Shown one piece after another: positions 25,846-45,125 of a DNA stretch of 45,125 nucleotides (the first letter of the stretch is position 1; every line of letters starts with the position of its first letter). The translations under genes and the position numbers were made by a program. The notes under the pieces were generated by a model, which saw only the letters and a list, made by a program, of their open reading frames with translations, did no database searches and was not told the origin of the DNA. This stretch comes from a virus. Lineage: Duplodnaviria > Caudoviricetes. The DNA lies in the IMG/VR virus record IMGVR_UViG_3300011443_000022, positions 1 through 45,125 of that record, one strand, 5' to 3'.

Positions 25846-25846
25846 A

Positions 25847-28369: not shown

Positions 28370-28371
28370 GA

Positions 28372-29080: not shown

Positions 29081-30423
29081 TACGGTAATACTCCTATCTT
29101 AGTCACTACGTTTGCTTGTATTGTACCATTTTCATAGTCTCTCTGGTAACACCCACTACCACAGCTAGAGCGTGGGCCTAGCGGCTCACCATAATCGCTG
29201 CTCCATAGAGTACTGAATGCGCTACCTTGTCCGTCGTGTGATGGTGTGCTATAGAAATCCCCACTTTCCCTTGCTATAAGATACATTGCTAGGCCGAACT
29301 CATCCTGCGCCGCAGTGTAGTCGGTATAACTATTATCCGCTCTACGTTCAAAGTCTAGCACTGCTGTTCCAAGACCGTGTAACCTATCCAAGTAGGCTAG
29401 ATAATCCTCCGCCCCGCTAACTGTATTACATCCATGCCTACACTGTATCCAGCCAAACTCTATCTCAACAGCATCAGGCGCGGCCCAGAACCTATCAGCA
29501 TTAGTACCATCTAAAGCCTTTAAGCTATTCCATGTTGTGTATTGGCTGTTCAGAATCAGCGGCCCATCGACCTCGTTCTGCATCCGCTCGGCCAGCGTTG
29601 CCCACGCCGCCAACCAATCCGCATTCGACACCACCGGCGTACCCTGACAGTCACTAGCATGGGGTAGGTATGCCTCCGCCACATCAATGTAAATCCCGTC
29701 GAATGCGCTCTCAGCCACTAATGCTTGTAGCTTAGCGATAATCTCGTTCTGCACATCCGCTTGTGTTACATCCGCCAGATACCGCTGACTGTTATCATCC
29801 GGGCCAAACCCATTCTGATAACATACACCGCTTGACGCCTGTAAAATATCTGAACAGTCTGTCCCCGGCTGCTCCCCTTCACACTCTGGCGTACAAAATT
29901 CATCATTCAAGCCACATATCTTAGTACTATCCTGATAAACGTACGTCGTTCCATTAAAGGCATTGCCATACTCTCGACAAATGCCACAATCAAAAGTATT
30001 AATCGCCTCGTAGTTGGTGTTCATCATTGCCGCCCCCGCTGTGGGGTTAGCATCCCACTGCGCGTCGAAGTCCAACATCTTCGACATATACCTTACCTGT
30101 GTATCACACCAGCTAAAGTTCAACATAACATGAATCAAATCTTGAATGTTAATCCAGTTATAGGGTGGGTCTATTGTACCCAAATCTCCGGGGCCGGGTA
30201 CAACATCCCACCTTACATCATAGTTAGGGTGGCCCGGTGCTGTCTCCAACCTTCGGATAGGCGCAATAAACGATGTAACATCTAGGATGCTTACTTGTCT
30301 ATCGTTAGTTAAATCCAAGGGACAGGAGGAATCGAACCCTTTAGTCTGGGTATCATTTGAGCAAGCTATAGCTAGTATAGAAAACAGCAATAGCAACACC
30401 CCTCCCGCAATCCATTTCTTCAA
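29080..30423 (-). CDS. Lipoprotein with dockerin-like module and putative glycoside hydrolase (GHL15-like TIM barrel)
   Basis: Lipobox LAIAC; DLTNDRQVSILDV...WINIQDL; FDGIYID; FGLAMYLI; DYGEPLGP...YQRDYENGTIQAN. Confidence 0.7.
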   Translation of the reverse strand: MKKWIAGGVLLLLFSILAIACSNDTQTKGFDSSCPLDLTNDRQVSILDVTSFIAPIRRLETAPGHPNYDVRWDVVPGPGDLGTIDPPYNWINIQDLIHVMLNFSWCDTQVRYMSKMLDFDAQWDANPTAGAAMMNTNYEAINTFDCGICREYGNAFNGTTYVYQDSTKICGLNDEFCTPECEGEQPGTDCSDILQASSGVCYQNGFGPDDNSQRYLADVTQADVQNEIIAKLQALVAESAFDGIYIDVAEAYLPHASDCQGTPVVSNADWLAAWATLAERMQNEVDGPLILNSQYTTWNSLKALDGTNADRFWAAPDAVEIEFGWIQCRHGCNTVSGAEDYLAYLDRLHGLGTAVLDFERRADNSYTDYTAAQDEFGLAMYLIARESGDFYSTPSHDGQGSAFSTLWSSDYGEPLGPRSSCGSGCYQRDYENGTIQANVVTKIGVLP

Positions 30424-30436
30424 AGCAATCTCCCTC

Positions 30437-31183
30437 TTAAAACCATCTCACCGGAGTTTGCGCTAGATTTCTATGCGGAGCCAACTCCTTAAACACCCGC
30501 TCTAGTTCCACTACATCCTTCTGACAGTGTTTGATAATATAATTCAGCGCATCTGCATCCCCCCTTAATGCTCGTAGCCATATTTGTCCGACGATGCTAT
30601 CCTTCTTTGTCTTCCCAAAAAGGAAATCCCCTACACTAGCAAGCCGATTACTATGCAGCTTCAACTTCCAGCGGGAAGTATAGTACATATCGACGTGTCG
30701 CGCATAACCAAGCGTTGGCACACCTGCGGCTATCGCCCTCGTAGTAGTAAACGGCATGTCATACCCTGTACCATACCACGTCACAATATAATCATACTTA
30801 CGTAGCTCTTCGATAATATCAGGAACGATTGTCTCGTCCCCCGCCACACCTTCAATAGCGAAGGTCTTAGTCTTACCCCCGACCGGCTTGATACAAGCAC
30901 ACAGCATAGCCCCAAAATCAGCGTCAAGCTGTGTAGCTTCAATATCAAAGATAGCAAAGGATTTGTTTTTCAAAATCCATGCGTCTTTAGCTTTGTTTCT
31001 TTCCGCCCTTGCCTGCTTGCGGTGTTCTTCTAACTCCCATGCAGTTTCATCATAGATTCTAAGCGGGGTAGCAAGCCTCTTTACACTGTTCTCCTGCTTC
31101 CGCTTACACTTACAATCCTTACAATACTTCGCATTATGTACTGTTGAATCAACCTCATGGCAATTGTCGTAAACACATCTCAT
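30437..31183 (-). CDS. RNase H-fold 3'-5' exonuclease (RNase_H_2/YprB-like) with N-terminal Zn finger
   Basis: FDIEA, TWYGTGYDMPF, HVDMY, HCQKDV. Confidence 0.85.
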   Translation of the reverse strand: MRCVYDNCHEVDSTVHNAKYCKDCKCKRKQENSVKRLATPLRIYDETAWELEEHRKQARAERNKAKDAWILKNKSFAIFDIEATQLDADFGAMLCACIKPVGGKTKTFAIEGVAGDETIVPDIIEELRKYDYIVTWYGTGYDMPFTTTRAIAAGVPTLGYARHVDMYYTSRWKLKLHSNRLASVGDFLFGKTKKDSIVGQIWLRALRGDADALNYIIKHCQKDVVELERVFKELAPHRNLAQTPVRWF

Positions 31184-31770
31184 TAAAAACCTCGCTGATT
31201 AACCATGATTGCTGTGTCCAATGCATCCTTCAAATTATGTGCGGCGTACGGCGTCTTTACCTGCACGTTGTACGGCCAGCACATCTTCACAACAATCAGC
31301 CCTGCCTCAATCGCTGGCTTAATGTGTTTAGGAGAATCATCAACAAGAACACGTATCCCCAAATCATTACAAAGATGCCCCTTTTCCTCTCCGCTCTTTA
31401 CTCTCACCACAAGCGGTTCCTTTATACCATTAAATTCCAACCACTTAACTGTCTGGAACCACGGCTCTACTCCATCCCGCCGCGTCATAAACACGACGTT
31501 ATTCCTATGTATGTCCCGCAGGAAATTCATTTGGAAAGGCCAGAGAGGTTTCAGTGTAAACCAAAACCTGTCGCTCTCCATAATCCGTTCCCAAACATTG
31601 TCGTTTAATTCCTCGGTATATCCTTCCTTCCAGTACCAATCCCGAAAGTCCCACGATAGTACCCGCTGGTAGTCACTTACAATAGGCGCTTCGGGGTTAA
31701 CCCTCCCCGCCATCCGTGTATATCCCTCAGTGAAGTTCGCAAGAACTCCATCCATATCAACTGCTATCAT
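31183..31770 (-). CDS. HAD-family 5'(3')-deoxyribonucleotidase
   Basis: IAVDMDGVLANF, FMTRR, LVDDSP, WPYN. Confidence 0.88.
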   Translation of the reverse strand: MIAVDMDGVLANFTEGYTRMAGRVNPEAPIVSDYQRVLSWDFRDWYWKEGYTEELNDNVWERIMESDRFWFTLKPLWPFQMNFLRDIHRNNVVFMTRRDGVEPWFQTVKWLEFNGIKEPLVVRVKSGEEKGHLCNDLGIRVLVDDSPKHIKPAIEAGLIVVKMCWPYNVQVKTPYAAHNLKDALDTAIMVNQRGF

Positions 31771-32105
31771 GCGTGTTCATCTTCCCACAACACCCGACAG
31801 ATAGCAGCATAGACCCCTATATCATCGAAGCTATCCACCACTCCCTCATTTGCCAGTGTCCCTGTCTGTGCGTACGTCTGCAATCTGCTTATCTTATCAC
31901 AGAGGCGAATCAATGCCGCCCTCCACGGCTCGACGCCGAATAGCTTACTCTGTCTGAGGTTGGCAAAGGGGTCGTCCCCGCTACCATAGTCTGCCTGCTT
32001 CCGGTCGTGCAGGTCGCCCCACTCACCGAGAATATCATGGAAGCGTTCAGACGCCGGATGCCTCTTCGGAGTGGAGAGATAAGGAATATAATGATTTACT
32101 TCCAT
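31767..32105 (-). CDS. DUF1599/nucleotide-modification-associated domain 1 (MazG-like helical) protein
   Basis: K.ADYG..DPFANL, IRLCDKISRL, EGVVDSFDDIGVYA; start at MEVNH, TAATG-coupled to the ERCC4 gene. Confidence 0.8.
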   Translation of the reverse strand: MEVNHYIPYLSTPKRHPASERFHDILGEWGDLHDRKQADYGSGDDPFANLRQSKLFGVEPWRAALIRLCDKISRLQTYAQTGTLANEGVVDSFDDIGVYAAICRVLWEDEHA

Positions 32106-32803
32106 TATGTCGCCGTTAGCGCGTCGTATAGCTTCTTCTTCATTGTCTCCCCCAAACCCTCCACCTTTATAGCCTTCCACTGGCTCGGTGATAGGGAGGA
32201 AAGTTCCTTGATACTCCACTCCGAGAGGCTCTGTGCCCTTGTAATCCCTAGCCCCGGAACAAGTGCAGCCAGTGCCTCTGCACGGCCCGTCTCTGTCCCT
32301 GTCCATAGTAACTGCCTCTTCCTTCGGGGTTTCAGATGGCCCTTCCTCTGACTCCAATTGTACAAAAGGCGGATGCGTTCGCCTAAACCATTCCCAATAC
32401 ACGTCGTCAGGTAAATCCCCGCCATCTGCCACGAGAGCAGATAGTCGTCTATACCATCTCTCGTCCACTGTATCGGGCACTGCATCCTTTTCAAGTGGGC
32501 TATCTGTGCCGCAGCATCCCCCTGTACTAGCAGAATAGGAATTGGATATGTCTCCACCATTCGCTGCAATTGCTCCATCAAACGAGTACTTGGCGGTAAA
32601 CTGTTCAATAAGTCGTTTGCTTCTTTCCTCTCCACTCCCACTACACATTCAAATCCTCCACTGTACCATACTATATCCCCTGTCTCCATCTTCTTCTCTA
32701 TCACCGGAACGTGGGGGAGAGCCTTCTGTATCGCCTCAACAGTCGGCTTCTCCCCCCTTGTATCGACGATGATAGGGTAGACTATACTAGTCTTGCTAGT
32801 CAC
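32105..32803 (-). CDS. ERCC4/XPF-family nuclease (probable resolvase)
   Basis: IIVDTRGE, GDIVW, GVERK...DL..S, RL.EQL.RM, C-terminal HhH (VPGLG; VEGLG). Confidence 0.88.
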   Translation of the reverse strand: MTSKTSIVYPIIVDTRGEKPTVEAIQKALPHVPVIEKKMETGDIVWYSGGFECVVGVERKEANDLLNSLPPSTRLMEQLQRMVETYPIPILLVQGDAAAQIAHLKRMQCPIQWTRDGIDDYLLSWQMAGIYLTTCIGNGLGERIRLLYNWSQRKGHLKPRRKRQLLWTGTETGRAEALAALVPGLGITRAQSLSEWSIKELSSLSPSQWKAIKVEGLGETMKKKLYDALTAT

Positions 32804-32891
32804 AACAAGTAATCACAAACCCACACGTCATACAGATATACTTCCCGCCCGAACTCAGCCGCATTAAATTACCGCAACACCAACAACACAT
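32796..32891 (-). CDS. 31-aa Zn-ribbon peptide
   Basis: MCCWCCGNLMRLSSGGKYICMTCGFVITCCD; TAATG-coupled to the upstream gene. Confidence 0.6.
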   Translation of the reverse strand: MCCWCCGNLMRLSSGGKYICMTCGFVITCCD

Positions 32892-33211
32892 TACAGCGCC
32901 AATCTCAACACACTATCATCAGTACGGAAGGACACAACATCCCCCGCCATCATGTTAAGCTGAGCAATGGCGTTCTTGTAGCCCTTAACTTCAAGAGCAG
33001 GCTTAGTTGGAGGACGATTCTGATAGCCTAGACCCACTTCGACACCGCGTTCGATTTGGTCGAGAGCTATCTTTGTAGCCTTCTTCTGCCACGCTGCTAG
33101 TTTATCAGGATAACCCGCCTGCTCGGCCAAAAACTTCTGCTGTTCCCGTTCAATCTTAACCTCTAATGCTTGAATAAGCATAGCCTTATTAAACTTCTGT
33201 GCTGTTGCCAT
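32891..33211 (-). CDS. Hypothetical helical protein
   Basis: AAAGGA RBS before MATAQKF. Confidence 0.7.
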   Translation of the reverse strand: MATAQKFNKAMLIQALEVKIEREQQKFLAEQAGYPDKLAAWQKKATKIALDQIERGVEVGLGYQNRPPTKPALEVKGYKNAIAQLNMMAGDVVSFRTDDSVLRLAL

Positions 33212-33974
33212 TGTTATATTCCTTTCCAATCACCATGCGATAAAGCATATCGAACGTAACATCCGCTAAGTCCAGCCCTAGCAGACTCTCCTTCAACTTG
33301 CTCGTTACAATCTTACTCATATGCGTCCGCTTATCCGGCACCGTAACCACATTCACCTTACCCACTCCTGCTTCTACCTGCGCCTTCTCTGTCGGCACCG
33401 CAATCTCAGGACAGTGAACGTAGAGTTCCGTGTTTAGCCAACTCCTTGTATCTCCGAATCCTTTTCTATCCATTCCATCAGTCTTAGTCTTTGCTCCTGC
33501 CCATACAGGTGACGCGGTGGTACTAACGCAGACCTGTATACCACTCCGTGCCAGTCTTTGATAGTGGGTGTTAAAGTAGTTATTAACCCCTGCATGGTCG
33601 CGCGGCATAGCGTCCTCTGGAAGAAGCGCCGTCCGAACAATGGACAGAAAACGGTTCTCTCCGTCCAAGAAAAATCCTTTACACTGAGCGATGGCTGTGC
33701 GTACAGCCGCGTCAAACTGTAAGAGTAATCCCTGTGCGGCAGAAGGAGAGAGAGTATCCAAATCAACCTGTATAGGAACATAATACAACTCCTTCGTGTT
33801 GGGTAACTTCGCCACTAGACTTCCCGCTGGTCTATCACAGTTAACAAACATCAACGGAGAGGGTAGGCTTAGTCCAACGCTACTCTTCCCCGTACCTTCT
33901 AATCCAAACAGACCAATAAACAGAGCATCTTCTTCTTCACCTGTTGGCCTCTGTCCACCTACTAACTTTTCGAT
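33189..33974 (-). CDS. P-loop ATPase (AAA_24/Sak4/RecA-like); probable ATC start at 33974
   Basis: Extending ORF 33189..33854 upstream in frame gives IEKLVGGQRPTGEEEDALFIGLFGLEGTGKSSVGLSLPSPLMFVNCD (Walker A); Walker B-like FFLDG; AAGGAG 7 nt before ATC. Confidence 0.8.
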   Translation of the reverse strand: MEKLVGGQRPTGEEEDALFIGLFGLEGTGKSSVGLSLPSPLMFVNCDRPAGSLVAKLPNTKELYYVPIQVDLDTLSPSAAQGLLLQFDAAVRTAIAQCKGFFLDGENRFLSIVRTALLPEDAMPRDHAGVNNYFNTHYQRLARSGIQVCVSTTASPVWAGAKTKTDGMDRKGFGDTRSWLNTELYVHCPEIAVPTEKAQVEAGVGKVNVVTVPDKRTHMSKIVTSKLKESLLGLDLADVTFDMLYRMVIGKEYNNGNSTEV

Positions 33975-33986
33975 GACACTACTCCT

Positions 33987-34733
33987 TTACCCTGCCTCAA
34001 TACACGCCGTTTGAATCCGGCAGTACCCACACGGAAACTTATCCTTCAACGGATTAAACTCCCTTCTTACCTGCGAAATATCGTTCACAGTATCCACTAG
34101 ATACTTCACTTCCTCGCTCCTTATCTTCGCCTCATACTGATTCCCTTCATCCCGTGCAATATACCTCACAAAGAACTCAGGCAAATCCTCCGTTTGTTTA
34201 CCCCACTGGTGCTGCCCCTGCCGCCACAGCTTATTCGCCGCAGACCAATCCTGCACAGTACAGTGAAGTACCGCTCCCTCGCAGTCCGGCAACCCCATCA
34301 GATAACTCTGCATCTGCATGTAGTAGCCGGGGTCGCCTACCTCCACACCCAAACACAGTATCTTTATATACCCGTAGTATCCTAGGAATTTACTATCGAC
34401 AAGATACGTCTCTCCGTCTTTAGCAAGCCAGTCATACTCACCAGTCATAGGCGTACCCGGAATCTGGAACCTTTCGCCCGTACCCGCTGTTACCTCAAAC
34501 CCCGCTGCCTCATACACTCTCCGCAAGTACGGCTCTATCCCCTTACCCGCCTCCATCTTGATAATGTTATTATCGGGAGGAAAGTCAGTCGCAGGCATCT
34601 TCACACCCACACTCCACTGAGAACGAATACAGCCCCTTACCCCGCTAGGAGAAGGAGCATCATGCGGTGGAGCCTCTCGATATATCTTTTGTATAGCATT
34701 ACTCAGTCGTAAGTGTAATCCGATTTCATCCAT
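33987..34733 (-). CDS. Cas4-like PD-(D/E)XK exonuclease with Fe-S cysteines
   Basis: SPS...C.R, GEYD...LVDSK, QMQSY, CGYC.....C. Confidence 0.85.
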   Translation of the reverse strand: MDEIGLHLRLSNAIQKIYREAPPHDAPSPSGVRGCIRSQWSVGVKMPATDFPPDNNIIKMEAGKGIEPYLRRVYEAAGFEVTAGTGERFQIPGTPMTGEYDWLAKDGETYLVDSKFLGYYGYIKILCLGVEVGDPGYYMQMQSYLMGLPDCEGAVLHCTVQDWSAANKLWRQGQHQWGKQTEDLPEFFVRYIARDEGNQYEAKIRSEEVKYLVDTVNDISQVRREFNPLKDKFPCGYCRIQTACIEAG

Positions 34734-34763
34734 AAAACCTCTTTAACTTTTTAACAAAGGGGT

Positions 34764-34802
34764 AGGCGGGGGTGGAGAAAGGAGGAAAGCCACGCCCCGC
34801 CC
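34764..34802 (-). promoter_or_regulatory. GC-rich hairpin with anti-Shine-Dalgarno loop
   Basis: Minus RNA GGGCGGGG-C-GUGG [CUUUCCUCCUUUCU] CCAC-CCCCGCCU. Confidence 0.75.
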
Positions 34803-34817
34803 TGATGTAGAAATAGA

Positions 34818-35588
34818 CTAGCTGTTGAGGCTAACCGGCTTCAACGTACCATCTCCATTAACCTCCATGGGTAGAAGGTCAACAAGAGAACCATCTGCCG
34901 CAGCACCAATGAGATTCACTCCCTTAAATGTCGGCACAGACTTGACAAAGCTATCACCGAGAATAACATCGAAGACCTGAGAGGGTTGCTTGCCCGTCAG
35001 AATCTCGACCAGCTTAGCCTCAGTCGCACCATCATCCACAGCCACAGGCGTAGGAGATACCGCCACTCCATCCTCAGAATTCCTGCGAACAAGAATCCTC
35101 TTCTCCCCCCTGAACTGGTAGTCCGGCCCTCCAAGATGAGCAATCGGAACATTCACCCACGTCACCCGCTTCCCCTCAACCTTCCGCCCTTCAAAGACGA
35201 ATACCTGTCCGATAATTTCCTGAGACTTGGGGTTCCCCGGCCATACGGTAAACCCTCCGGGAATACCATCGGCTCGCGGACATTCGCGGAACGCCTTGGC
35301 TAGAATCGTCGGACGACTACCGGGGCCGTAAGGCTCTCCCGCATCGTTCTTCCACATCAGGCCAGCACCGCTGTAAGTCCCTGCCTCTGGAATATTCCCA
35401 TCTTCAAACACAGCGTCAAGCGCCTGTACTTCCAACGCCCACCATGCGTCCGGCACACCCCTTGCAGCAACCACCGCACTGTACTGTTCAGGCACAGTCG
35501 TCAGGTGGTTCGCGGTAACTCTACCAACGTGCGTCCGCTTCTGCTCTGGTGCATTTTCTGGGTCATAATTACTAGGGTCGTAACTCAA
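34818..35588 (-). CDS. Hypothetical protein (possible ssDNA-binding protein, by position only)
   Basis: Own promoter and GGAGG RBS, TTG start; heads the nuclease-ATPase cluster. Confidence 0.6.
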   Translation of the reverse strand: MSYDPSNYDPENAPEQKRTHVGRVTANHLTTVPEQYSAVVAARGVPDAWWALEVQALDAVFEDGNIPEAGTYSGAGLMWKNDAGEPYGPGSRPTILAKAFRECPRADGIPGGFTVWPGNPKSQEIIGQVFVFEGRKVEGKRVTWVNVPIAHLGGPDYQFRGEKRILVRRNSEDGVAVSPTPVAVDDGATEAKLVEILTGKQPSQVFDVILGDSFVKSVPTFKGVNLIGAAADGSLVDLLPMEVNGDGTLKPVSLNS

Positions 35589-35631
35589 TTAAACCTCCAT
35601 GAGTTGTAGAATGTGGAAGGATTTCTCTCCT

Positions 35632-35669
35632 CCCTATTATAGTATAACATATCGCCGCCGCATTGTCCA
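35632..35669 (-). promoter_or_regulatory. Sigma70-type promoter
   Basis: TGGACA-17-TATACT with TG extension; ATATGTYATACTATAA shared with the promoter at 44248-44286. Confidence 0.8.
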
Positions 35670-35671
35670 TC

Positions 35672-35974
35672 CTATTCTTCTTCCGTCGCCGGTCGGCGGC
35701 GCTGCATATACCAATTATGTGCTTGGCGGCGGCTCTCTAACACAACTTCCTCTGCATCTGGATACCTAGGTGCTATAGAATCTAACCACTCCTCCTCTTC
35801 TATTAGTCTCTTCATTAGTCTGTATTCTTTTTGGCTCGGAGGTTTGAACTTACCCTTCCGATTAAACTGCTTAGCCTTTCCGCAGAATTTACATATACCG
35901 AGTAGATACTTAGCCTTAGTCTTATCCGCAGATTGAATAAGCCAATGGTGGTCGCAGTCTGCTATTACCTTCAT
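35672..35974 (-). CDS. Hypothetical protein with probable Zn site
   Basis: CxHHW...CKFCG. Confidence 0.7.
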   Translation of the reverse strand: MKVIADCDHHWLIQSADKTKAKYLLGICKFCGKAKQFNRKGKFKPPSQKEYRLMKRLIEEEEWLDSIAPRYPDAEEVVLESRRQAHNWYMQRRRPATEEE

Positions 35975-37464
35975 CGCAGTGCAGCCAGTATATAATCCGG
36001 CCAGAGAGGACGGTTAAACTTCAATAGATTCCTCACATTAGAATCCAGAACATACGTCGCTCCCCAATCTGCCTCACTCCGCATAGCCCTACCAATCATC
36101 TGAGAAATCTGCATTACTGTCTGCGCTGCATAATCCTTCTTTCCGAATGGCCCATCGTTCATCCGTGCCGACACCAGCGGGTCACCTAGATATGGATAAG
36201 GAACCTTTGCGATGATGTTAACCCTGCATTGCTCATTAGGGAAATCCTCTCCTTCGCCAGCAGATGGGCTAAGTAGATACGTGCCTCTAGGGGCAGACCG
36301 GAACTGTTCAAATAGTCTCTGTCTATCCTCTCCCTGTTCACCGCAATGTAGTATAACATGTTCCCGGCCCAATGCACTGTAGATTGCGGCGGCTTGGGCA
36401 TTAGAGTTAACATGTATCATTCCTTTCTGGCCCGGATGCCTAGCCCATACCCCTTTAATATGTTCAGCCATCCGCATGTAATCCGCTTCACTCGTCCGTG
36501 CATTCATCGCCACTACCGGCTCGATATAAACAGGCCGTCTATCTACATTAAAGGGTGAGGGTAGGGAGATGAAGCTATACTGCTCCTCTGGTATCCCAAG
36601 CATATCAGCGAAGTGCTTCCCTCCGTAGAGAGTACCGCTCAAAAACACAACTTGCTCCGCTCTGATGGGTACATGTGTCAGCTTGGGCCACAGGGGGGAG
36701 AAGAACACCGTGCCACCCATAGAGTAGATAATATGTGGCTCCGCACTTTTTGCATACCACAATACACTCCGGGCCTTTCTCCTCATTTTCTGTCGCCACT
36801 TCTTATCTCCTACACTCTTATCTAACTCCAACATCTGCAACGCCCTAGCTGCACTCTCGCCCCACAGCGGCAGTGTATCCTCTACCGGCATACTATCTAG
36901 TCTCTCCCACTCCTCCCTTCTAACCTGTACCTGAAACAAATCGTCCAGTATATCCCGCAGCCTATGCGCCTCATCACATATCAGCACATCACACTCGCTC
37001 ACATCCCCGCTGGCAAACATAGTCTCCGCAAAGTAATACGCGTAACTAGTCACCACTAGCGGGTGAGCCTCAGCAATCCCTCTCTGTATATAATAAGGAC
37101 ATATACTTCGCACGGGACAGTTTATCCCATCAGTACACGGTGCATTCGCCGCAGTATCACTATTTGCCTCATCCCATACACAGGGAAAGTTACCCCTTCC
37201 CTTCATCGTTACCGCATGTGAGGAGAAGTCTCGCATGTATTGCTGCATGAGGCTGATGGTTCGTGTGAGAATCCTAACCCTAGCACCAGTTTGTTTTTGA
37301 TGGGCCACGGCGATGAGAGACTTACCCGTCCCTGTCGGACTTTCGATAGCAAGGAATGCTTCTTGCCCCTGCTCCATGTAGTTGAGAACTTCAAGCTGTA
37401 CGTCTCGAAAACCCGCATCATATCCCTCCAATCCTAGGCTAGAAGGGGTCAGTACGGGAAGCAA
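35971..37464 (-). CDS. DinG/XPD-family SF2 helicase
   Basis: SPTGTGKS, KGRGNFPC, Fe-S cysteines to CPYY, DEAH, LSGTL, EGEDF, KVPYP, QMIGRAMRS..DWG...LD. Confidence 0.93.
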   Translation of the reverse strand: MLPVLTPSSLGLEGYDAGFRDVQLEVLNYMEQGQEAFLAIESPTGTGKSLIAVAHQKQTGARVRILTRTISLMQQYMRDFSSHAVTMKGRGNFPCVWDEANSDTAANAPCTDGINCPVRSICPYYIQRGIAEAHPLVVTSYAYYFAETMFASGDVSECDVLICDEAHRLRDILDDLFQVQVRREEWERLDSMPVEDTLPLWGESAARALQMLELDKSVGDKKWRQKMRRKARSVLWYAKSAEPHIIYSMGGTVFFSPLWPKLTHVPIRAEQVVFLSGTLYGGKHFADMLGIPEEQYSFISLPSPFNVDRRPVYIEPVVAMNARTSEADYMRMAEHIKGVWARHPGQKGMIHVNSNAQAAAIYSALGREHVILHCGEQGEDRQRLFEQFRSAPRGTYLLSPSAGEGEDFPNEQCRVNIIAKVPYPYLGDPLVSARMNDGPFGKKDYAAQTVMQISQMIGRAMRSEADWGATYVLDSNVRNLLKFNRPLWPDYILAALR

Positions 37465-37699
37465 GTTCTGCCTGTAAATCTTCTATTAAACTTTCTATTT
37501 GAGCTATACCATCCTCGATAGCATAACCCGCCTGCTCCCCATTAACCACCATTAGCGCGTTCCACCCCGCACTCTCCTGCCGCCACAACATCTTAATAAT
37601 TGCTCGAAGATGGGGAGTTTCAAGTTGACAATAAAGTATCTCCTCTCCTTCTTTAGTTTCCCATGTATCACAGAAACAATCTTCATGCTGGATAGTCAA
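37439..37699 (-). CDS. Hypothetical protein
   Basis: AAGGAG RBS; W.TKEG...L...HL..II pattern. Confidence 0.7.
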   Translation of the reverse strand: MTIQHEDCFCDTWETKEGEEILYCQLETPHLRAIIKMLWRQESAGWNALMVVNGEQAGYAIEDGIAQIESLIEDLQAELASRTDPF

Positions 37700-38432
37700 G
37701 AAACTCCTTTACGCAATAAGGAAACAGTGGTTGAATCAACTCTCGTACCGCTATAGCATACTGCGTTATCTCATACTGTGCATCATGTTCTAACCTCTGC
37801 GCTAAGAAATGCAACACACTTTGCAAACTCGCCGTCCAATACCACGTAGTATACAAACCATACGCTGGAAGGAAAAGCCTAGCCTGTTCCGCCGAAATAC
37901 CACTAGCAATAGCCCATGAATAATTGTGTGTAGCCTGTGATTGTATCTTCTCCAACATTAAGTTCAACTCAGGAGTTAAAGGGGTTACTCCCTCCCCTCC
38001 CTGTTTATTCTTACCGCTCTGCTTGAACCATACATCAGGAACATAATACTCTGGCATATCATTAACATACCGCCTGCTTACTTCATTCCATCCCTCCATA
38101 GTATGATCACTCCCCACTACATACTTCCACCACTGACGCGCCACCATCAAGGGAGCCTTAACCTCAAACGTACATGAGGCGTGGCGAAAGGGAGAGCTAT
38201 GCCCATGCTCCTTCAAGTAACGTATCAGCTTAACATCACTCTCCCTTATCTTCTCCGTTCTTTTATTATAACTCACCCGCGCCGCATTGACAACAGATAC
38301 ATCACTACCCATGTAGTCTACCAGTCTAACATATCCCTTGTCAAGTACGTCGATAGCTAGGTCTGGGCCTACTTCACCAACCATGTATATTTCCCTAGCT
38401 GACTTGTAACCGCCATTTGTAGCATAAGACAA
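37683..38432 (-). CDS. thyX: Flavin-dependent thymidylate synthase
   Basis: VLDKGYVRLVD, NAARVSY, H.SPF, VARQWWKY (in place of RHR), NEVSRRY, EQARLFLP, AQYEI; true start may be internal. Confidence 0.93.
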   Translation of the reverse strand: MSYATNGGYKSAREIYMVGEVGPDLAIDVLDKGYVRLVDYMGSDVSVVNAARVSYNKRTEKIRESDVKLIRYLKEHGHSSPFRHASCTFEVKAPLMVARQWWKYVVGSDHTMEGWNEVSRRYVNDMPEYYVPDVWFKQSGKNKQGGEGVTPLTPELNLMLEKIQSQATHNYSWAIASGISAEQARLFLPAYGLYTTWYWTASLQSVLHFLAQRLEHDAQYEITQYAIAVRELIQPLFPYCVKEFLDYPA

Positions 38433-38569
38433 CTCCCGCAGTCCACGTTATTTGTACTCGCATGTATGCTGCGATATATATTCTGCAACACTCCGTTGAT
38501 TAGCATATCATAACGCTGTAAACTTATCTCAACAGGATCAAGAACTTTTATAGTGCGCTCTCTAACCAT
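38369..38569 (-). CDS. Hypothetical protein
   Basis: AAGGAGG upstream; fills a gap. Confidence 0.45.
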   Translation of the reverse strand: MVRERTIKVLDPVEISLQRYDMLINGVLQNIYRSIHASTNNVDCGSCLMLQMAVTSQLGKYTWLVK

Positions 38570-39141
38570 AAATTCAACGCCTCCTTTTCTCTGCGACTCC
38601 TCACACTCCCAATACTATCATTCACTACACTACTATCCGCACACAGTCGCGTCAACCTATGCCTTAGAGTATCGTCCTTGGTTTTACTAACAAACCCCAT
38701 TAACTCATTCAGTACCTCCCCTACTCTCCGCAAATTCCTATCCTTAATGTAATCATTCAACCTCTTCTCTTGCATATTCAGATACGTTTGGAACATACTC
38801 TCTCGCTTAGCCTGTTCCGCTGCGTTCTTCATCTCCCTGTCCCACTCTATCTGCTCCACCACCGCTTGCATTTCCGGGTCGTTTTCGGCTAAAGCAGTCG
38901 CTAACTCGTATCCCAACACCACAGCGGCATGTAACATGAGCCTGTGCAATGACGCGCCGTACGGCAGGCTCCTGTGATTCGCTAAGATTTGCAAGTTTTC
39001 TCGCAGTCTTGGCGGCATTGGAACGTGGACAGTTGCAGAGTTTCTTTCCTGAGGGAGAGAATGTTCCCCGTACCCTACGTCCATTAACCATGTTAAATCC
39101 GCATGAATAGCATCAACCGCTGTTTTAACCGCATCATCCAC
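38548..39141 (-). CDS. Possible ribbon-helix-helix-type regulator with coiled coil
   Basis: SATVHVPMPPRLRENLQILA...SLHRLMLHAA strand-helix-helix pattern. Confidence 0.45.
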   Translation of the reverse strand: MDDAVKTAVDAIHADLTWLMDVGYGEHSLPQERNSATVHVPMPPRLRENLQILANHRSLPYGASLHRLMLHAAVVLGYELATALAENDPEMQAVVEQIEWDREMKNAAEQAKRESMFQTYLNMQEKRLNDYIKDRNLRRVGEVLNELMGFVSKTKDDTLRHRLTRLCADSSVVNDSIGSVRSRREKEALNLWLESAL

Positions 39142-39950
39142 TATGCCTGCCCCTGCAACCAATCAATACGATGCTGGTCGAATGACGTAGTGTGCGCCAT
39201 TAAGAAATCTAGTTTACTAGGGAACGTCTGCGTTGCCCCGTTCGGCCATGTAACCGTATAGGGTTCCAGCGTCCACTGCGCCAGCTTTTCCAATGTCTGT
39301 GATTGTCGTTCTGTAAGTGCCAATTCATCCTCCGTACTAAAGTAACTATCGCGGAATGTGTTGAGGTCTACCGCCACCCCCTCCAACACTGTTGTATTCT
39401 GATACTGCTCCCCCATCAAATCGGCTATCTGCCATAAGCCATAAGGGGAGGTAGGAAAATCTATATCAGGGTTGCTATCATAAAAGGCGTTCCATAGATT
39501 CGGAAAACGCGCCTTCCATCGAGGGTCGTTCTTACTAGGTAGGGTATTCCAAAACCACTTCGCAGAATAAAGAGTATTACATATATGCCCCGACTCTATA
39601 CCTACATGCTGAGCTAACTCCGCCGCTCTCTCGTATGTAGTCCCTGCTATCTCCACATCCATAAACACCCATAGTAAACGTTCCCACTCATCACCGCAGT
39701 TTGCTTCGATCTTATTCATTTGAATTGGTAAACTCCACCAATCAGGAGGAGAGGCATTAACATAGGCACACGAAATTAATCCTGCCTCCCTAGCACAGCG
39801 TAGATTATTCTCACATACTGCCTTTATCCCCGGATTACCTGCTAACCCCCCCGTCCAAGCACACTGAACAAATACCTCATACCCCTCAGCTTTCCTATTC
39901 GCCGCCCACTGTGGAGTAATTTTACTAAACGATACGTCTATCCCCCTCAC
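39141..39950 (-). CDS. GH25-like muramidase (putative endolysin)
   Basis: GIDVS, FMDVE, LYS..WFW, LWNAFY, QYQ...VDLN. Confidence 0.8.
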   Translation of the reverse strand: MRGIDVSFSKITPQWAANRKAEGYEVFVQCAWTGGLAGNPGIKAVCENNLRCAREAGLISCAYVNASPPDWWSLPIQMNKIEANCGDEWERLLWVFMDVEIAGTTYERAAELAQHVGIESGHICNTLYSAKWFWNTLPSKNDPRWKARFPNLWNAFYDSNPDIDFPTSPYGLWQIADLMGEQYQNTTVLEGVAVDLNTFRDSYFSTEDELALTERQSQTLEKLAQWTLEPYTVTWPNGATQTFPSKLDFLMAHTTSFDQHRIDWLQGQA

Positions 39951-40198
39951 TCGTACACTACCTCTAACCTATCCACCACACTACACTTCGGTATAAGCAT
40001 AGGAGTATGCGCTGTCCTAACATCCTTCTGTCCACCAATTGAAGAAGCTAGTACAATCACATCCGCATCCTCATCCAATACAAATCCAATAGACTGACAT
40101 ACCATATCAGCCTTATAATCTGTCAGTATGTCCTCGACATCCGTCCATCCCATCTCTGGTGTGTGTGAATCAATCCACCGCACGTAACTAATATGCAT
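39947..40198 (-). CDS. Conserved phage hypothetical protein
   Basis: V.WIDS....GW, SIGFV..D....VLASS, IP..V pattern. Confidence 0.75.
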   Translation of the reverse strand: MHISYVRWIDSHTPEMGWTDVEDILTDYKADMVCQSIGFVLDEDADVIVLASSIGGQKDVRTAHTPMLIPKCSVVDRLEVVYE

Positions 40199-42336
40199 TA
40201 CTTAGTCTTTTCCCATCTATAACTCACGAACAAGTCTATCTCCATAGGTATTCCCTTAACAACTTCCCTTGCTGCCTTCATCATAGCATAACTAAGCACA
40301 TCCTTACTATGTTCTACGTCTACCTCATCGACCTCAGTGATAATCTCATCATGGCACTGGTGTATAATATCCTCCCGTGTCTCCTCATAAATATCCATAG
40401 CTTCCTTTGTCATATCCCCTACCGTACCTTGAATCGGAGAGTTCTTCGCCTGTCTCTCAGCGTGACTCCTCTTCACAGCATGGTCGCTCCATAAATCCGG
40501 CAGCTTCCTCCTTCTCCCATGCATAGTCTCACTGTAACCCAAAGAATATGCTAACTGTACCTGCCTGTCCAACCACTCATTCAATACAGGGTACGCCTGC
40601 TCGTGTGCTGCAAAAATCTCCATCGCCACACTCAACGGCATTCCCGTAACCTCGGCTAGTTTCTTCACTCCCCCACCATATAGCTTCTCGAAGTTCGCCG
40701 CCTTCGTCGCTACATACTGGCGCTCCGTATAGTCCCTACCATACAACCTCACCGCTAGTTCTTTATGCGGACTCCGCCCATCTTTGAACATCTGTAGTAG
40801 GTTCTCATCGCCCGACATTACCGCCGCGACTCTTAACTCCGCTCCGCTGTAATCCGCAATAACAAACTTCTTCCCCGGCCTAGCCCGAATCAACCTCCGC
40901 ATCGGAGCAGGAAAGTTCTGCCCATCACTCGAAATCCTACCCGTTTCAGTCCCATGAATTTTATATGTAAACTGTATATGCCCCGGCAGTAGCGGCTTTA
41001 AATACCGACTCCTCTGTAAAGTAATATCATTCCAATACAAGAGCAGCTTAGCCAACGGATGCTCACACGCTTCAAGCACACTCTTATCCACTGATTGTTT
41101 CTTAGTTTTTGTAGTGCGCTTCGGCAGTAATTGTATATGCATTTCTTTGAACGCCTGCCGCACCTGCTCGTCCGAGTTGGGATTCTCTACCCCACTGACC
41201 TGCCGTATCCGCTCCCTCAGTACATCTAGCTTAGCCTCTATCCCCTCACTGAGTACCTGTGCCCCTTCCGCATCCGTATCCATGCCAGCAAGCGTACAAC
41301 GCGCCAGAATGGGTATCAGCGGACGGTCAATACTCTCATACAGATGAGACTGGTATGGCTCTAACGTAAGAGCTTCGTGTAATCTCCACGTCAACACTGC
41401 ATCTTGTGCCGCGTTCTCAGCCCCGAACCCTAGCTCTTTACTACTTACTCCATGCAATCCAATCCTAGCCGCTGCCCCCTTCAACGACAAATCATCCTCG
41501 TCCTTCTCCCACAACTTAATCATCGTATCATGTGGGGGAGAATCGAACGTATACCTATCTCCTAAAACCACCATATCGTAGAGTGCGTGGTGCATGACAG
41601 CCACACCCACATGTGTTCTAATCTTTTCGCCAGTATAATCCCTCCAATCTATAACAGTAGCATCAGCCATACCGTTATAATGTCCACTATAATTAAGCAC
41701 CGCCACTCGTGAGTCTAGACTGTTGGTTTCAGTATCAATAGCCTCACTCAAACTTCGATAAGTAAGCGGCTGTACTGTGTTAAACTTAAACTCTTCTTTA
41801 GGGGCAGACTCCCTCCCGCCTGCTGCTAGGGAGAGCATGGCTAGTACCCCACCCACTAGCTCGGCGTATGCTCTGCGACTCCCTCTCTTCCTCATTATGT
41901 AAGAGGGGTGGAACATAGCGTAGCACTGTGCTTGCTTCTCTTCCGACCACATCACCCGCCCGTTCCTCTGTGTCTGGCTTCCTTTGAATCCTAGCCAGTC
42001 CGTTGCATATTTCCCGCAGCCAATAATAACGCTCGGCTTCCACTTCTCTACCTCCTGTTCTAGCTCCGATAAGCAAGCCGCTAGTTCCTCTTCAGTTGGG
42101 TCGTTCCTCTCCGCTGGCGGTACATACTTACACATATTCGAGATATAGTAGTTCTCTATACCTGCCTTATTCATCCACTCCCGCATCAACCGGCCACTCT
42201 GCCCTACGATTGGTCTACCTACCACTCCCTCTGTCCTACCCGGACATTGCAGGAGGAGCATAATACCGTTCTGTTTGGGAGTACCTACCCATTCTGCTCC
42301 AACGTATACGTTAGTTGGATGTACTACATTTCGCAA
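40198..42336 (-). CDS. polA: Family A DNA polymerase with N-terminal family-4 uracil-DNA-glycosylase-like domain (SPO1-type architecture)
   Basis: UDG: QCPG..E...GRPIVG.SG, N..K..P, FHPSY. Exo: DTET, YD, QDA. Pol: TGRISS, DYSGAELR, K..NF...YG, NSPIQG, HDE. Confidence 0.95.
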   Translation of the reverse strand: MRNVVHPTNVYVGAEWVGTPKQNGIMLLLQCPGRTEGVVGRPIVGQSGRLMREWMNKAGIENYYISNMCKYVPPAERNDPTEEELAACLSELEQEVEKWKPSVIIGCGKYATDWLGFKGSQTQRNGRVMWSEEKQAQCYAMFHPSYIMRKRGSRRAYAELVGGVLAMLSLAAGGRESAPKEEFKFNTVQPLTYRSLSEAIDTETNSLDSRVAVLNYSGHYNGMADATVIDWRDYTGEKIRTHVGVAVMHHALYDMVVLGDRYTFDSPPHDTMIKLWEKDEDDLSLKGAAARIGLHGVSSKELGFGAENAAQDAVLTWRLHEALTLEPYQSHLYESIDRPLIPILARCTLAGMDTDAEGAQVLSEGIEAKLDVLRERIRQVSGVENPNSDEQVRQAFKEMHIQLLPKRTTKTKKQSVDKSVLEACEHPLAKLLLYWNDITLQRSRYLKPLLPGHIQFTYKIHGTETGRISSDGQNFPAPMRRLIRARPGKKFVIADYSGAELRVAAVMSGDENLLQMFKDGRSPHKELAVRLYGRDYTERQYVATKAANFEKLYGGGVKKLAEVTGMPLSVAMEIFAAHEQAYPVLNEWLDRQVQLAYSLGYSETMHGRRRKLPDLWSDHAVKRSHAERQAKNSPIQGTVGDMTKEAMDIYEETREDIIHQCHDEIITEVDEVDVEHSKDVLSYAMMKAAREVVKGIPMEIDLFVSYRWEKTK

Positions 42337-42647
42337 TTATCGCAACCTTCGTCGTTGCAATCTTCACATATTGGTGGAGTGGGAGGGGACTCGAACCCCT
42401 CGTTAGAATCATGCACCTGCGCCACCCCATCCATACCGTACGCCCCCGGTTGTAGACTATATCTATAATGCTTCCTACAATCTTTACAATAACCTCTATC
42501 TGAAAGTCTTTTACCGTGTGTAGGACAGGTTGGGTATCTCTCCCAAAATGGCGCACACACCCAACAGTTATCTATAAAGGGATTATGATGCGCTTCTCCA
42601 ATACAGTCTACCATTATGGCATTACCGAATGTTCTAGCTCCGCTCAT
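42324..42647 (-). CDS. Cys-rich hypothetical protein overlapping a tRNA-like element
   Basis: CWVC, CPTH, CKDC, CEDC, CDNC. Confidence 0.65.
   Translation of the reverse strand: MSGARTFGNAIMVDCIGEAHHNPFIDNCWVCAPFWERYPTCPTHGKRLSDRGYCKDCRKHYRYSLQPGAYGMDGVAQVHDSNEGFESPPTPPICEDCNDEGCDNCEM
42372..42428 (-). ncRNA. tRNA-Ala/tmRNA-like acceptor stem plus T-arm, with no anticodon arm
   Basis: GGGGTGG-N20-GAGGGG TTCGAGT CCCCTC-CCACTCC-A-CCA; 7/7 acceptor pairs including G3-U. Confidence 0.5.
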
Positions 42648-43077
42648 TACTATCTCCTCTCACACTAGCAATCCACTTCCCCGGCTGTGTCTCAGTCAGT
42701 ACCAGCGTACCCTTCGGTGTCTTATCTTCCGGCCATATGTAAGACTCATCGAAAATACCTACAGCCCTCTTAGACTCTGGATATGTAACAAAACTAAAAC
42801 CCCCTTCTTGCGCCGTCCATGTACCCTCTGGTAGTCTATACGCATGTACATTACGGTAGTTATGTCGGCTCCCTAGTATCACCGCTCTATCCGCACAATA
42901 TTTTAAGTAATGTCTTACCTTAAACGGTAGATAAGATTTATACTTTTCTTCATTTAATACCCCTGATTCTCTGTCTTTAAGATACTCGAAAGATACATTG
43001 GATAACTCCTCTAAATAAAATACCACATCCGGCGAGAACTTCACCTTTACATGAGTTGAACCTAACGTAACCGGCAT
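42634..43077 (-). CDS. Hypothetical protein
   Basis: AAGGAGG RBS. Confidence 0.75.
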   Translation of the reverse strand: MPVTLGSTHVKVKFSPDVVFYLEELSNVSFEYLKDRESGVLNEEKYKSYLPFKVRHYLKYCADRAVILGSRHNYRNVHAYRLPEGTWTAQEGGFSFVTYPESKRAVGIFDESYIWPEDKTPKGTLVLTETQPGKWIASVRGDSNERS

Positions 43078-43086
43078 TCATCCTCC

Positions 43087-43536
43087 TTATCTCCAAGGAT
43101 ACCATCCTTGACTCTGCCATAATTGATACGCCTTCTCCACATTCCACCCAACCTCAGTACATCTACCCCAAAAATCCGGCCACTTCCCTGCATGTATAGG
43201 GTGAATCTGAAACAACCCACACGCACCACTCCCTTGATAATTCCACTTCCACGGCTCTCCTCCACTCTCTCTGTACATATAGTAGAGAGCTACACTGCAC
43301 GGCCAAGGCATACTACATACAGTAGATTCTATCTCCGTCAGCGGCGGGTAAATTGGAACCCATAACCTGTCAAGTACAGGTTCAGGGGTTGGACTGGGCG
43401 ATGGAGTAGGCTGTTCTCCTCTAGCAACCACACTCCATTCATATATTCCGTAATAGTCTATGCTATTACTATCCCGCTCTGACGCGCTACATCCTATTAG
43501 GAGTAACGCGCAGAGCAAGATAGCTAGACACCGCAG
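43087..43536 (-). CDS. SLT/lysozyme-like lytic transglycosylase, probable lipoprotein; probable CTG start
   Basis: RESGG, GACGLFQI, N...A..LW...GW.PW; signal (M)RCLAILLCALLLIGC begins at CTG 5 nt after GAGG. Confidence 0.8.
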   Translation of the reverse strand: MRCLAILLCALLLIGCSASERDSNSIDYYGIYEWSVVARGEQPTPSPSPTPEPVLDRLWVPIYPPLTEIESTVCSMPWPCSVALYYMYRESGGEPWKWNYQGSGACGLFQIHPIHAGKWPDFWGRCTEVGWNVEKAYQLWQSQGWYPWR

Positions 43537-43627
43537 TTATACCTCACGAGTTAGTCCTTCCTTCCTAGAACTAACCCGATCAATGCTACTCCGATAAAGG
43601 TACAGACCATCAATCGGGAATCCCAAG

Positions 43628-43843
43628 TCAGTTACTCACTCCGAAGACTAAGTCCTGACAGGCCTGACAGAGCCCAGAGATCCGGTACTCGTCACGGCTA
43701 ACGCTGTCTCGGAACGCAATGGCTGGTTTGCCGCAGCCATAGGGCTCGCGGACGCAGACATCGTTCTCGATGGCTGTCGTCCTTCCCGTCATGCTCTCCA
43801 GCATGGCCTCCAGTTCTGGTGACTTCTCAGTCGGCGTCCCCAT
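43628..43843 (-). CDS. Cys-rich hypothetical protein
   Basis: AAAGGAG before MGTPTEK; EY.ISGLCQ.CQD. Confidence 0.7.
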   Translation of the reverse strand: MGTPTEKSPELEAMLESMTGRTTAIENDVCVREPYGCGKPAIAFRDSVSRDEYRISGLCQACQDLVFGVSN

Positions 43844-44069
43844 TACGACTCCTTTCCAGCGAGAGTCCACGCAACTGCCGAAAGTATGTGTAGTCCCTCA
43901 GTAGATGGCTCCCCCCCAACGGTTGCGCCTTTCGGTAGTGATGCAAGCACACATCCTGCTCATGGTCGTCAGGGAAGGCGATGCAGCCATCGCTCAACCC
44001 GATTCGTGCCACGCTCTCGTCAGCGCAGAACCGGCACGGAGGCGCTGCAACACCATGTACGCCGTTCAT
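43827..44069 (-). CDS. Cys/His-rich hypothetical protein
   Basis: Likely start MNGVHG; CRFC...CLHH. Confidence 0.6.
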   Translation of the reverse strand: MNGVHGVAAPPCRFCADESVARIGLSDGCIAFPDDHEQDVCLHHYRKAQPLGGSHLLRDYTYFRQLRGLSLERSRNGDAD

Positions 44070-44162
44070 TTGTCTGCCCCCTGTAAGGCAGCACTTAGCC
44101 CACAGCCACACTCCCACTTATCTACGTCGCGCACGGTAAAATCCTTTCATAATCCGTCAACC

Positions 44163-44193
44163 TGTACCCTATACATCTCACCCGTTTTAGGTC
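44163..44193. repeat. Inverted repeat, left arm
   Basis: TGTACCCTATACATCTCACCC-gttt-TAGGTC; reverse complement of 44600-44630 (21 bp perfect plus 6 bp). Confidence 0.92.
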
Positions 44194-44247
44194 TAACTCT
44201 CCCCTCCCCTTATCCACCAACGAGTCCAATCAGGAGTCTTTCCCTAC

Positions 44248-44286
44248 CCCTATTTATAGTATGACATATTCCAAACATGTTGTCAA
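44248..44286 (-). promoter_or_regulatory. Sigma70-type promoter facing the polymerase operon
   Basis: TTGACA-17-CATACT with TG extension, followed by ATAAATAGGG. Confidence 0.8.
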
Positions 44287-44573
44287 CCCCTTCCACTACC
44301 AGAATATGAAAGATTCTTCTCGTACTCCATACTCAACCACTTATCGAGCGAAAGTGCCCGGCGAAACCCTATCCCTGTCACTGCCCCTCCTCTACTTCCC
44401 TCATCCTTTCCAAACAACCACGCTAGTATATCATGGTTCTCCTCTCCCGGCGCAGGTATACGCCGTCTATACATCTTCTCCCTCCCACATCGTATACACA
44501 ATCCCTTCAACTTCTCCTCTAGTACTACATCTGGACTCTGAATTATCTCATAATGAGTACAGTCTTCACACAT
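44283..44573 (-). CDS. Hypothetical CxxC protein
   Basis: AAGGAG before MCEDC; CIRC. Confidence 0.6.
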   Translation of the reverse strand: MCEDCTHYEIIQSPDVVLEEKLKGLCIRCGREKMYRRRIPAPGEENHDILAWLFGKDEGSRGGAVTGIGFRRALSLDKWLSMEYEKNLSYSGSGRG

Positions 44574-44599
44574 AAATCTCCTTAAATCTAACAAATCCC

Positions 44600-44630
44600 G
44601 ACCTATATTGGGTGAGATGTATAGGGTACA
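44600..44630. repeat. Inverted repeat, right arm
   Basis: GACCTA-tatt-GGGTGAGATGTATAGGGTACA. Confidence 0.92.
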
Positions 44631-44639
44631 CTTTACGCA

Positions 44640-45002
44640 TTATGTATTCATAATGTGTTGAACGGCTGTCGAGAGTGTAGTAGTACTCCTGCGCTTATAA
44701 AACTCCGTACCGTTCTCTCCATCCGTCACATGTTCCCATCCAAAACGCCAGTACGCACCGAAGTTATCCGCACACATCGTACAATCCTCATCACTACAGC
44801 CAAACGTATCCATGTGAAAGCCGATGTGCCAGCTTTCATACATAGGCGAGTCCGGCCACGGCTCATTCACTCCTTGGTCTGTGAAGGGAGTGCCTATTAG
44901 GTTAGGTATAAGAGAAGGAAGGAGATGTACTCTCGGCCCTCCGCCTGTCCTTCCTCTTAGGTACTCATCATCAAACCAATCTGCCCTATTAGTGATATAC
45001 TT
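44640..45002 (-). CDS. C-terminal extension of the glutamine amidotransferase that starts at 789
   Basis: Reading frame is continuous across the circular join. Confidence 0.85.
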   Translation of the reverse strand, partial: KYITNRADWFDDEYLRGRTGGGPRVHLLPSLIPNLIGTPFTDQGVNEPWPDSPMYESWHIGFHMDTFGCSDEDCTMCADNFGAYWRFGWEHVTDGENGTEFYKRRSTTTLSTAVQHIMNT

Positions 45003-45125
45003 ACTACGCGTCTCATCCCACCTAAGACGCTTGGTATTCCCGGTGGTAGCGTAGTTCTTAGCGTAGAAGGGATGCACGTTGTAACCATTATACTTCTCCC
45101 ACTGAGACGTTCTTACCTCATGGCG
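45003..45125. repeat. 123-bp exact direct repeat (copy 2)
   Basis: Identical to 1-123. Confidence 0.95.

Follow-up and report, generated by a model that had tools for sequence, protein, structure and literature searches.

The window, i.e. the complete stretch of 45,125 nt analysed here, spans an entire virus record and carries direct terminal repeats. It encodes a terminase, a capsid protein, a family A DNA polymerase fused to a uracil-DNA-glycosylase (UDG) domain, a helicase, ThyX, and Cas4-like as well as RNase H-like nucleases. On the minus strand, genes for a glutamine amidotransferase and an amidoligase lie side by side (1-1923); such pairs belong to phage clusters that have been suggested to modify the cell wall. 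The polymerase gene (polA) begins with a TTG codon, and 35 nt ahead of it lies a mini-tmRNA-like element of 57 nt (42428→42372), which coincides with exactly 19 in-frame codons of a small Cys-rich ORF (Table 1).

Table 1. Coordinates of the element, its parts and the neighbouring features in the window. TLD, tRNA-like domain; SD, Shine-Dalgarno.
Feature	Position	Strand	Basis or remark
Family A DNA polymerase with N-terminal UDG domain (polA)	40198..42336	-	Pfam DNA_pol_A, UDG; TTG start at 42336
8-bp hairpin 3' of the CCA	42339..42361	-	predicted fold; overlaps SD-like GAAGGT (42350-42345) for polA
TLD-only mini-tmRNA-like element	42372..42428	-	7-bp acceptor + 6-bp T stem = 13-bp helix
3' acceptor strand CCACTCC (U70 equivalent), discriminator A, encoded CCA	42372..42382	-	sequence
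T arm GAGGGG/CCCCTC, 6 bp, loop TTCGAGT	42383..42401	-	strands 42401-42396 / 42388-42383
20-nt connector	42402..42421	-	D-loop-like GG at nt 12-13, GA at nt 19-20
5' acceptor strand GGGGTGG (G3)	42422..42428	-	sequence
tmRNA-5'-like 19-mer	42429..42447	-	rank 12 of 90,212 positions, 4.7 bits, matrix of 17 host 5' ends
107-aa Cys-rich ORF	42324..42647	-	element = codons 74-92, then CxxC-x3-CxxC tail
Best upstream sigma70-like promoter candidate	44258..44286	-	1.8 kb away; total of 5 equals chance (5.1)

The two acceptor strands pair at all seven positions (42428-42422 with 42382-42376), including G3·U, and are followed by ACCA (42375-42372). In the connector, just TTCT stands between GA and AAC at the place where helix 2 would be, and AAC directly precedes the T stem; the 57 nt contain no anticodon arm, no helix 2 and no tag reading frame. 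The parts named in the initial annotation (acceptor with G3-U, discriminator A, CCA, T arm and a gap of 20 nt) match the window exactly, whereas its total of 76 nt has to be reduced to 57 nt, as the additional upstream 19-mer is missing from a sister allele described below. When the 57-mer is folded, the described shape is both the minimum-energy and the centroid structure (-22.2 kcal/mol), with a z of only -1.03; with the flanking window sequence included, formation of the acceptor is predicted with P about 0.99. The element is real: a rule-based scan gave a single match in the window and one in total over 1500 dinucleotide shuffles of it.

ARAGORN calls no gene anywhere in the window, the element included. 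In Rfam, the best match is tmRNA RF00023 (23.2 bits, E 1.4e-6), below the gathering score of 47. The alignment covers both ends of the model and lacks its middle. Since RF00023 gives ordinary tRNA-Ala near 40 bits too, the model alone cannot tell tmRNA from tRNA. Compared with a standard tmRNA, the 7-bp acceptor, G3·U, discriminator A and CCA are all present; helix 2, pseudoknots and the tag reading frame are all absent, with 20 nt leading from the acceptor to the T arm. The element agrees with the TLD-only type known from the mycobacteriophage DS6A, as an alanine acceptor and a T arm form one short piece without a tag frame, and it is closer to tmRNA than to tRNA, as the 6-bp T stem and the preceding AC match tmRNA of the host class. 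In the D-loop-like part, the GG/GA register is that of DS6A, but CGAC reads TGAT and GGAC reads TAAC. The residual helix-2 stem of DS6A is absent, which makes the element a variant of this type and not a full member. Two other identities were rejected: tRNA-Ala on account of the missing cloverleaf and anticodon arm, a T stem that is not 5 bp and the silence of ARAGORN, and a permuted two-piece tmRNA on account of the standard order of the acceptor strands and the lack of a permuted-model match in the Rfam search. Judged by its sequence, the most fitting interpretation of the element is a tRNA-like domain of tmRNA that lacks the tag.

DS6A provides the phage precedent, its TLD-only tmRNA being reported as 'standard, no CDS' (tmID 11587; PMC4131195, PMC11915505). 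Both elements are phage-borne, possess a 7-bp acceptor with G3·U, discriminator A and a T arm and no tag frame, share the connector register N4-GG-N5-GA, and fall below the Rfam gathering score (43.2 bits for DS6A at L311:979-1061). The DS6A RNA, however, is 83 nt long, carries a helix-2-like stem and a 5-bp T stem, does not encode its CCA and lies between annotated genes, whereas the window element has 57 nt, no helix 2, a 6-bp T stem, an encoded CCA and an in-frame position within an ORF. Immediately downstream of the DS6A RNA follows a gene with the annotation DNA polymerase III. Tag-less forms are also reported from organelles, namely CDS-less plastid tmRNAs of ~65 bp (Mallomonadaceae) and mitochondrial tmRNAs (PMC11915505). 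These likewise consist of the TLD only and are of similar size, but they are the organelle's own gene, whereas the window element belongs to a virus, is shorter, and would be present alongside a complete host tmRNA. With tRNA-Ala and synthetic minihelix-Ala it shares G3·U, discriminator A, CCA and the T loop, yet it has no D stem or anticodon arm, and its helix measures 13 rather than 12 bp. The kind of molecule is already known from DS6A; new are the lack of helix 2, the host-matched geometry and the in-frame ORF position. As delimited here, the element is shorter than both the plastid and the DS6A forms. Among openly accessible papers, we found no such short forms described beyond DS6A and the organellar cases; the nine 'standard, no CDS' sequences of PMC11915505, tmRNA database entries outside this comparison, might include similar ones.

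The geometry of the element points to a particular bacterial lineage. When all of GTDB was scanned for 13-nt-spaced ends, 16 loci came up. Of these, 15 are complete tmRNA genes, from records with Dehalococcoidia (10) or Chloroflexi/Chloroflexota (5) in the title; a stand-alone mini form was not among the 16. With a pattern open to 5 or 6 bp, the class gave 135 tmRNA matches, spread over 131 of its 151 genomes, and the T stem is 6 bp long in every one. Such loci in the class of G002 include L251-L266 except L253, L269-L298, and L338-L340. At the level of the phylum, the stem has 6 bp in 73 and 5 bp in 39 of 112 stem-forming matches (of 122 rows, 10 that did not resemble tmRNA were left aside, and G440 is included). 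Going by these sequences, the survey shows the 13-bp acceptor/T helix to be the norm in Dehalococcoidia-class tmRNA; at the level of literature listings, no description of this helix or of the 6-bp T stem of the class was found. Since the 6-bp T stem is standard in tmRNA of the class, whereas the T stem of host tRNA-Ala has 5 bp in all five genes examined, the comparison supports the view that the element mimics host-lineage tmRNA and not tRNA-Ala. The idea of a tRNA or tmRNA mimic in the initial annotation is thus borne out, and the 6-bp stem together with the preceding AC narrows it to tmRNA of the host lineage.

The likeness to Dehalococcoidia-class tmRNA comprises the 7/6 helix, GAGGGG/CCCCTC, AC before the T stem, G3·U and ACCA; the exact T stem of the phage occurs in 16 of the 68 matching genomes (401 class genomes searched). 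Relative to such a tmRNA, however, the element is short of about 300 nt (helix 2, pseudoknots and tag frame), its D-loop and connector depart from the class consensus TCGAC/GGAC, and two acceptor pairs are swapped. The 5' strand seen most often in hosts is GGGGACG, from which GGGGTGG deviates at positions 5-6, and CCACTCC is found in none of the host-class tmRNA matches; at both of the pairs that are unlike the commonest host tmRNA, the 5' strand of the element restores the pairing.

Matches to the capsid protein occur in 7 of 301 class genomes; the closest (59% identical) belongs to a prophage of the single-contig genome G256. Because of the tmRNA geometry and this capsid match in a class prophage, the host is likely a Dehalococcoidia-class bacterium. 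The G256 prophage, whose capsid is 58-59% identical to that of the window, has an element of ~100 nt with a 6-bp T stem, G·U and ACCA (L333:5718-5818; G256:C1, about 260717-260817, plus strand). A promoter-like TATAAT precedes this element and the terminase region follows it; its acceptor is paired at 6 of 7 positions, and the fold is uncertain. Among the 301 class genomes, the exonuclease gene had no match at E 1e-20. A DNA search with window 25200-45125 brought up no CRISPR spacer, as no CRISPR array was present at the two non-tmRNA matches checked.

When window positions 25200-45125 were compared with the 401 class genomes, the best DNA match was that of the element's 3' half to tmRNA (91% over 34 nt). 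This match would suit a relic, either a tmRNA 3' end acquired by capture (former att site) or a mini-tmRNA in decay, that is now tolerated as a linker in a small ORF, and so would the off-consensus D-loop and connector and the possible second 5' strand just upstream. But the last 34 nt are at least 5 nt away from each of 11 distinct host tmRNA ends compared. Second copies of the host tmRNA 3' end in G014:C61 and G100:C73, 1.3 and 5.3 kb apart, are identical and are probably due to islands integrated at ssrA. In addition, searches for recombinases (PF00589 and PF07508) were empty in this terminal-repeat genome, in agreement with the lack of an integrase noted before, and the altered 3' strand finds a 7/7 partner in the 5' strand of the element itself. 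Given the lack of a tyrosine or serine recombinase, a 3' half that differs from all sampled host ends and a compensating 5' strand, the relic att site of the initial annotation is unlikely, and we regard a relic of either kind as distinctly improbable. An attP at ssrA was also dismissed, for want of identity to the sampled host 3' ends and of an integrase.

Exact and near patterns of the window element matched no locus in IMG/VR, and searches there with the element peptide and polA retrieved no true relatives; L001/L002 and L007 proved to be chance Cys matches. blastn against INPHARED gave just T-arm and att-like matches at E 0.2 or above, and for P0003 no further homologue of comparable length turned up. 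Scanning 56 of the 64 IMG/VR parts for 13-nt-spaced ends yielded 120 loci in 89 distinct contexts. Short 7/6 elements with a fully paired acceptor number seven (L161, L174, L197, L222, L234, L239 and L240; 52-84 nt). L222, an 84-nt version, is intergenic, between a stop codon and the next gene start, in the related phage G518, which shares five syntenic genes with the window phage at 26-54% identity. The shortest form seen has 52 nt and also no helix 2; it is found directly behind a promoter-like TTGCAA..TATAAT in phage G001 (L239:246-297), which has no protein match to the window. GATTC..AC precedes the T stem in the window element, L239 and L222. With 52-57 nt, the window and G001 forms are the smallest natural tmRNA heads seen.

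A looser scan of 2 of the 64 parts gave 123 loci, several 5-bp TLD-only forms among them. TLD-only-like elements of 62-85 nt with 5-bp T stems were picked by eye (L030, L043, L036, L054, L097, L114, L091, L022 and L032). Longer alanine-type elements with 13-nt-spaced ends also occur (L135 group, L173/L194, L132 group, L213/L250, L241 and L170); they measure 76-136 nt where sized, have bodies unlike tRNA, and several recur in many contigs. A search for additional sisters without helix 2 returned 12 loci, one of which is L239 again and the rest tRNAs or chance, and L072 was rejected as a mini form because ARAGORN calls a permuted tmRNA. Across 12 minis, 96.7% of the positions counted are paired and 9 of 13 pairs show two-sided change, but such counts are circular as proof of covariation, since the rows had been chosen for pairing.

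A second allele of the locus is represented by metagenome contigs L005 and L006 and also occurs in contigs of runs X5, X6 and X10, which may stem from one campaign; L004, which agrees with the window in length and in sequence here, was not treated as an independent case. The divergence between the alleles is mosaic, with patches at window 41450-41799 and 42634-43518 (minus strand) and 99-100% identity elsewhere; it affects polA (89%), a 147-aa gene (72%) and an SLT-like gene (92%). Genes upstream of the element are 72-92% identical. The element region shows 0 differences over 58 nt versus 5 over the next 63 nt (Fisher p 0.035); as the known alleles number only two and are likewise identical over the first 509 nt of polA beyond 42309, this invariance amounts to weak or modest evidence. 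Synonymous changes that break the pairing, which the initial annotation had named as an argument against an RNA, were not seen, in a comparison of low power with one other allele and an element without any change. The hairpin 3' of the CCA differs by a single change, from A-U to G·U.

Upstream of the element, 232 nt are swapped for 85 other bases in the sister allele, the joint being at 42429, i.e. nt -1 from G1. Except for the common base at the joint, the tmRNA-5'-like 19-mer is absent from L005/L006 and is therefore not required. It would pair with the 3' acceptor strand at just 5 of 7 positions and is possibly a relic of an older register. In part, the upstream cassette of the sister allele (L005:1950-2030, and likewise in L006) could base-pair with the 5' half of the element. 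For sister-allele precursors with a leader of at least 60 nt, the upstream stretch is predicted to beat the acceptor stem by 2-8 kcal/mol, and 74 of 500 shuffled leaders (15%) out-compete the stem likewise; this alternative hairpin may be a switch, or else chance.

The overlap with a Cys-rich ORF reported initially is exact to the codon (Table 1). In both alleles the ORF overlaps the upstream stop and the polA start, and its frame is open, which makes translation through the element plausible. ORF residues ~5-65 form a widespread small Cys-rich domain. The family of this N-terminal domain (window 42450-42647, minus strand) comprises at least 167 proteins at 50% clustering; it has no significant Pfam or PHROG match and a weak one to DZR_2 (E 0.036). 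Matches to the 167 homologues mostly end near residue ~62. Among the 150 listed of the 167, residues 70-107 are covered by the sister allele's protein alone, and the Cys tail recurs in 0 of 31 homologues with a locatable end motif. Since the element peptide is unconserved in the protein family, the peptide is not the conserved thing. A coding coincidence, in which the ORF peptide spells the fold by chance, could appeal to the exact fit of 19 in-frame codons and to the frame being open in both alleles; GC-rich elements of this sort, however, often fall in open frames by chance, the fold arose once in 1500 shuffles, and residues 70-107 are covered as just described. This reading is largely refuted. 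Hardly better is the primer RNA for DNA replication proposed in the initial annotation, which found no support: no primase was recognised among the 49 ORFs scanned, as had been remarked before, but tRNA priming is known from reverse transcriptases, and none is among the family hits. We consider both readings very improbable.

In a sigma70-like scan of the window, no good promoter candidate was detected beside the element. Contigs of RNA run X24 cover just 43085-43200 and nothing over the element; they are uninformative on its expression. Without a promoter of its own, in a tightly overlapped operon and 35 nt before polA, the element might serve as a cis processing signal, i.e. an RNase P site at which the operon is cut before polA and the Cys-rich message truncated, with the RNA as a by-product. 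The predicted formation of the acceptor in the window context is consistent with such a role, and the DS6A copy likewise precedes a polymerase gene. A processing site, however, needs neither G3·U nor the tmRNA-specific sixth pair, and the G518 and G001 copies are intergenic, beside other genes. In G518 the copy has other genes as neighbours, so a processing signal coupled to polA has not been conserved. We therefore hold this reading to be quite unlikely; of the RNase P signal for the polymerase message suggested initially, the release of the RNA by RNase P probably stands, but the link to polA does not.

Anatomy, class tmRNA geometry, compensatory pairs, invariance in the sister allele and 7/6 counterparts in other phages can be read directly from the DNA. 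For the function, we tentatively favour a copy of the host-lineage TLD that is cut from a longer transcript, alanylated, and acts as a tag-less decoy dampening trans-translation. The element would be transcribed within the replication operon, then cut by RNase P at its 5' end and trimmed at its 3' end, as is the case for tmRNA, whose 5' end is generated by RNase P and whose 3' end is processed by RNase III/E plus T/PH (PMC3968760). AlaRS would charge it via G3·U and discriminator A. With less assurance, it may bind SmpB without helix 2, and tying up SmpB could lead to less tagging and degradation of phage proteins, to the benefit of the phage. SmpB is reported to bind the D-loop/elbow of tmRNA (PMC3968760), with G19 and A334 as contacts in E. 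coli (PMC8363625), and the element keeps the equivalents of G19, A20 and A334/C335. Furthermore, a TLD-only molecule is reported at second hand to inhibit tmRNA (Mao et al. 2009, as given in PMC4131195 and PMC11915505), perhaps via SmpB titration. The DS6A precedent, this reported inhibition and the retained SmpB-contact equivalents are among the reasons for favouring a decoy. On the other hand, helix 2 is gone, TCGAC has become CATGAT and GGAC has become TAAC, so that SmpB binding may be lost; and because the element sits inside an open overlapping ORF, ribosomes translating that ORF would be in competition with its excision.

An improbable extension of the decoy is a dual-use locus with feedback. 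Here, excision by RNase P would free both the decoy and the polA leader and leave a stop-less Cys-rich mRNA as an ArfA-like sensor; the Cys-rich protein would accumulate only after the decoy has shut down tmRNA tagging. The logic of ArfA is the model for such a stop-less mRNA that senses tmRNA activity. About as improbable is a decoy or replacement directed against host defences with tmRNA or tRNA ends as their target, for instance CoCoNuT systems or CCA-modifying toxins. The element would present acceptor, T arm and CCA in host tmRNA geometry, but no host or defence system has been identified, and the lack of an anticodon excludes anticodon nucleases as the enemies to be drawn off. CoCoNuT systems, with SmpB-like and RNase domains by prediction, are predicted to target tmRNA (PMC11090510), and that targeting is itself a prediction. 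Unlikely, too, is a tag-less rescue helper, in which the charged RNA and SmpB would enter the stalled ribosome, take over the chain and aid recycling without a degradation tag, a role that has been put forward for organellar tmRNAs lacking a CDS. All charging determinants and the host geometry are retained, and CDS-less mitochondrial tmRNA is suggested to still help with incomplete mRNAs (PMC11915505), but the element offers no stop codon for release, and the sole reported test of such a molecule showed inhibition (PMC4131195, PMC11915505).

With regard to gene finding, ARAGORN and the Rfam gathering cut-off each miss the 57- and 52-nt forms. With the 13-bp helix as the norm of a bacterial class, one may ask how RNase P, EF-Tu and the ribosome cope with it, and the two short forms would probe the helix 2 requirement for SmpB binding. 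More generally, the element suggests that phage tmRNA mimics copy host-lineage geometry to the single base pair, which may provide a marker for host prediction as well as a direct test of the idea of an SmpB decoy.
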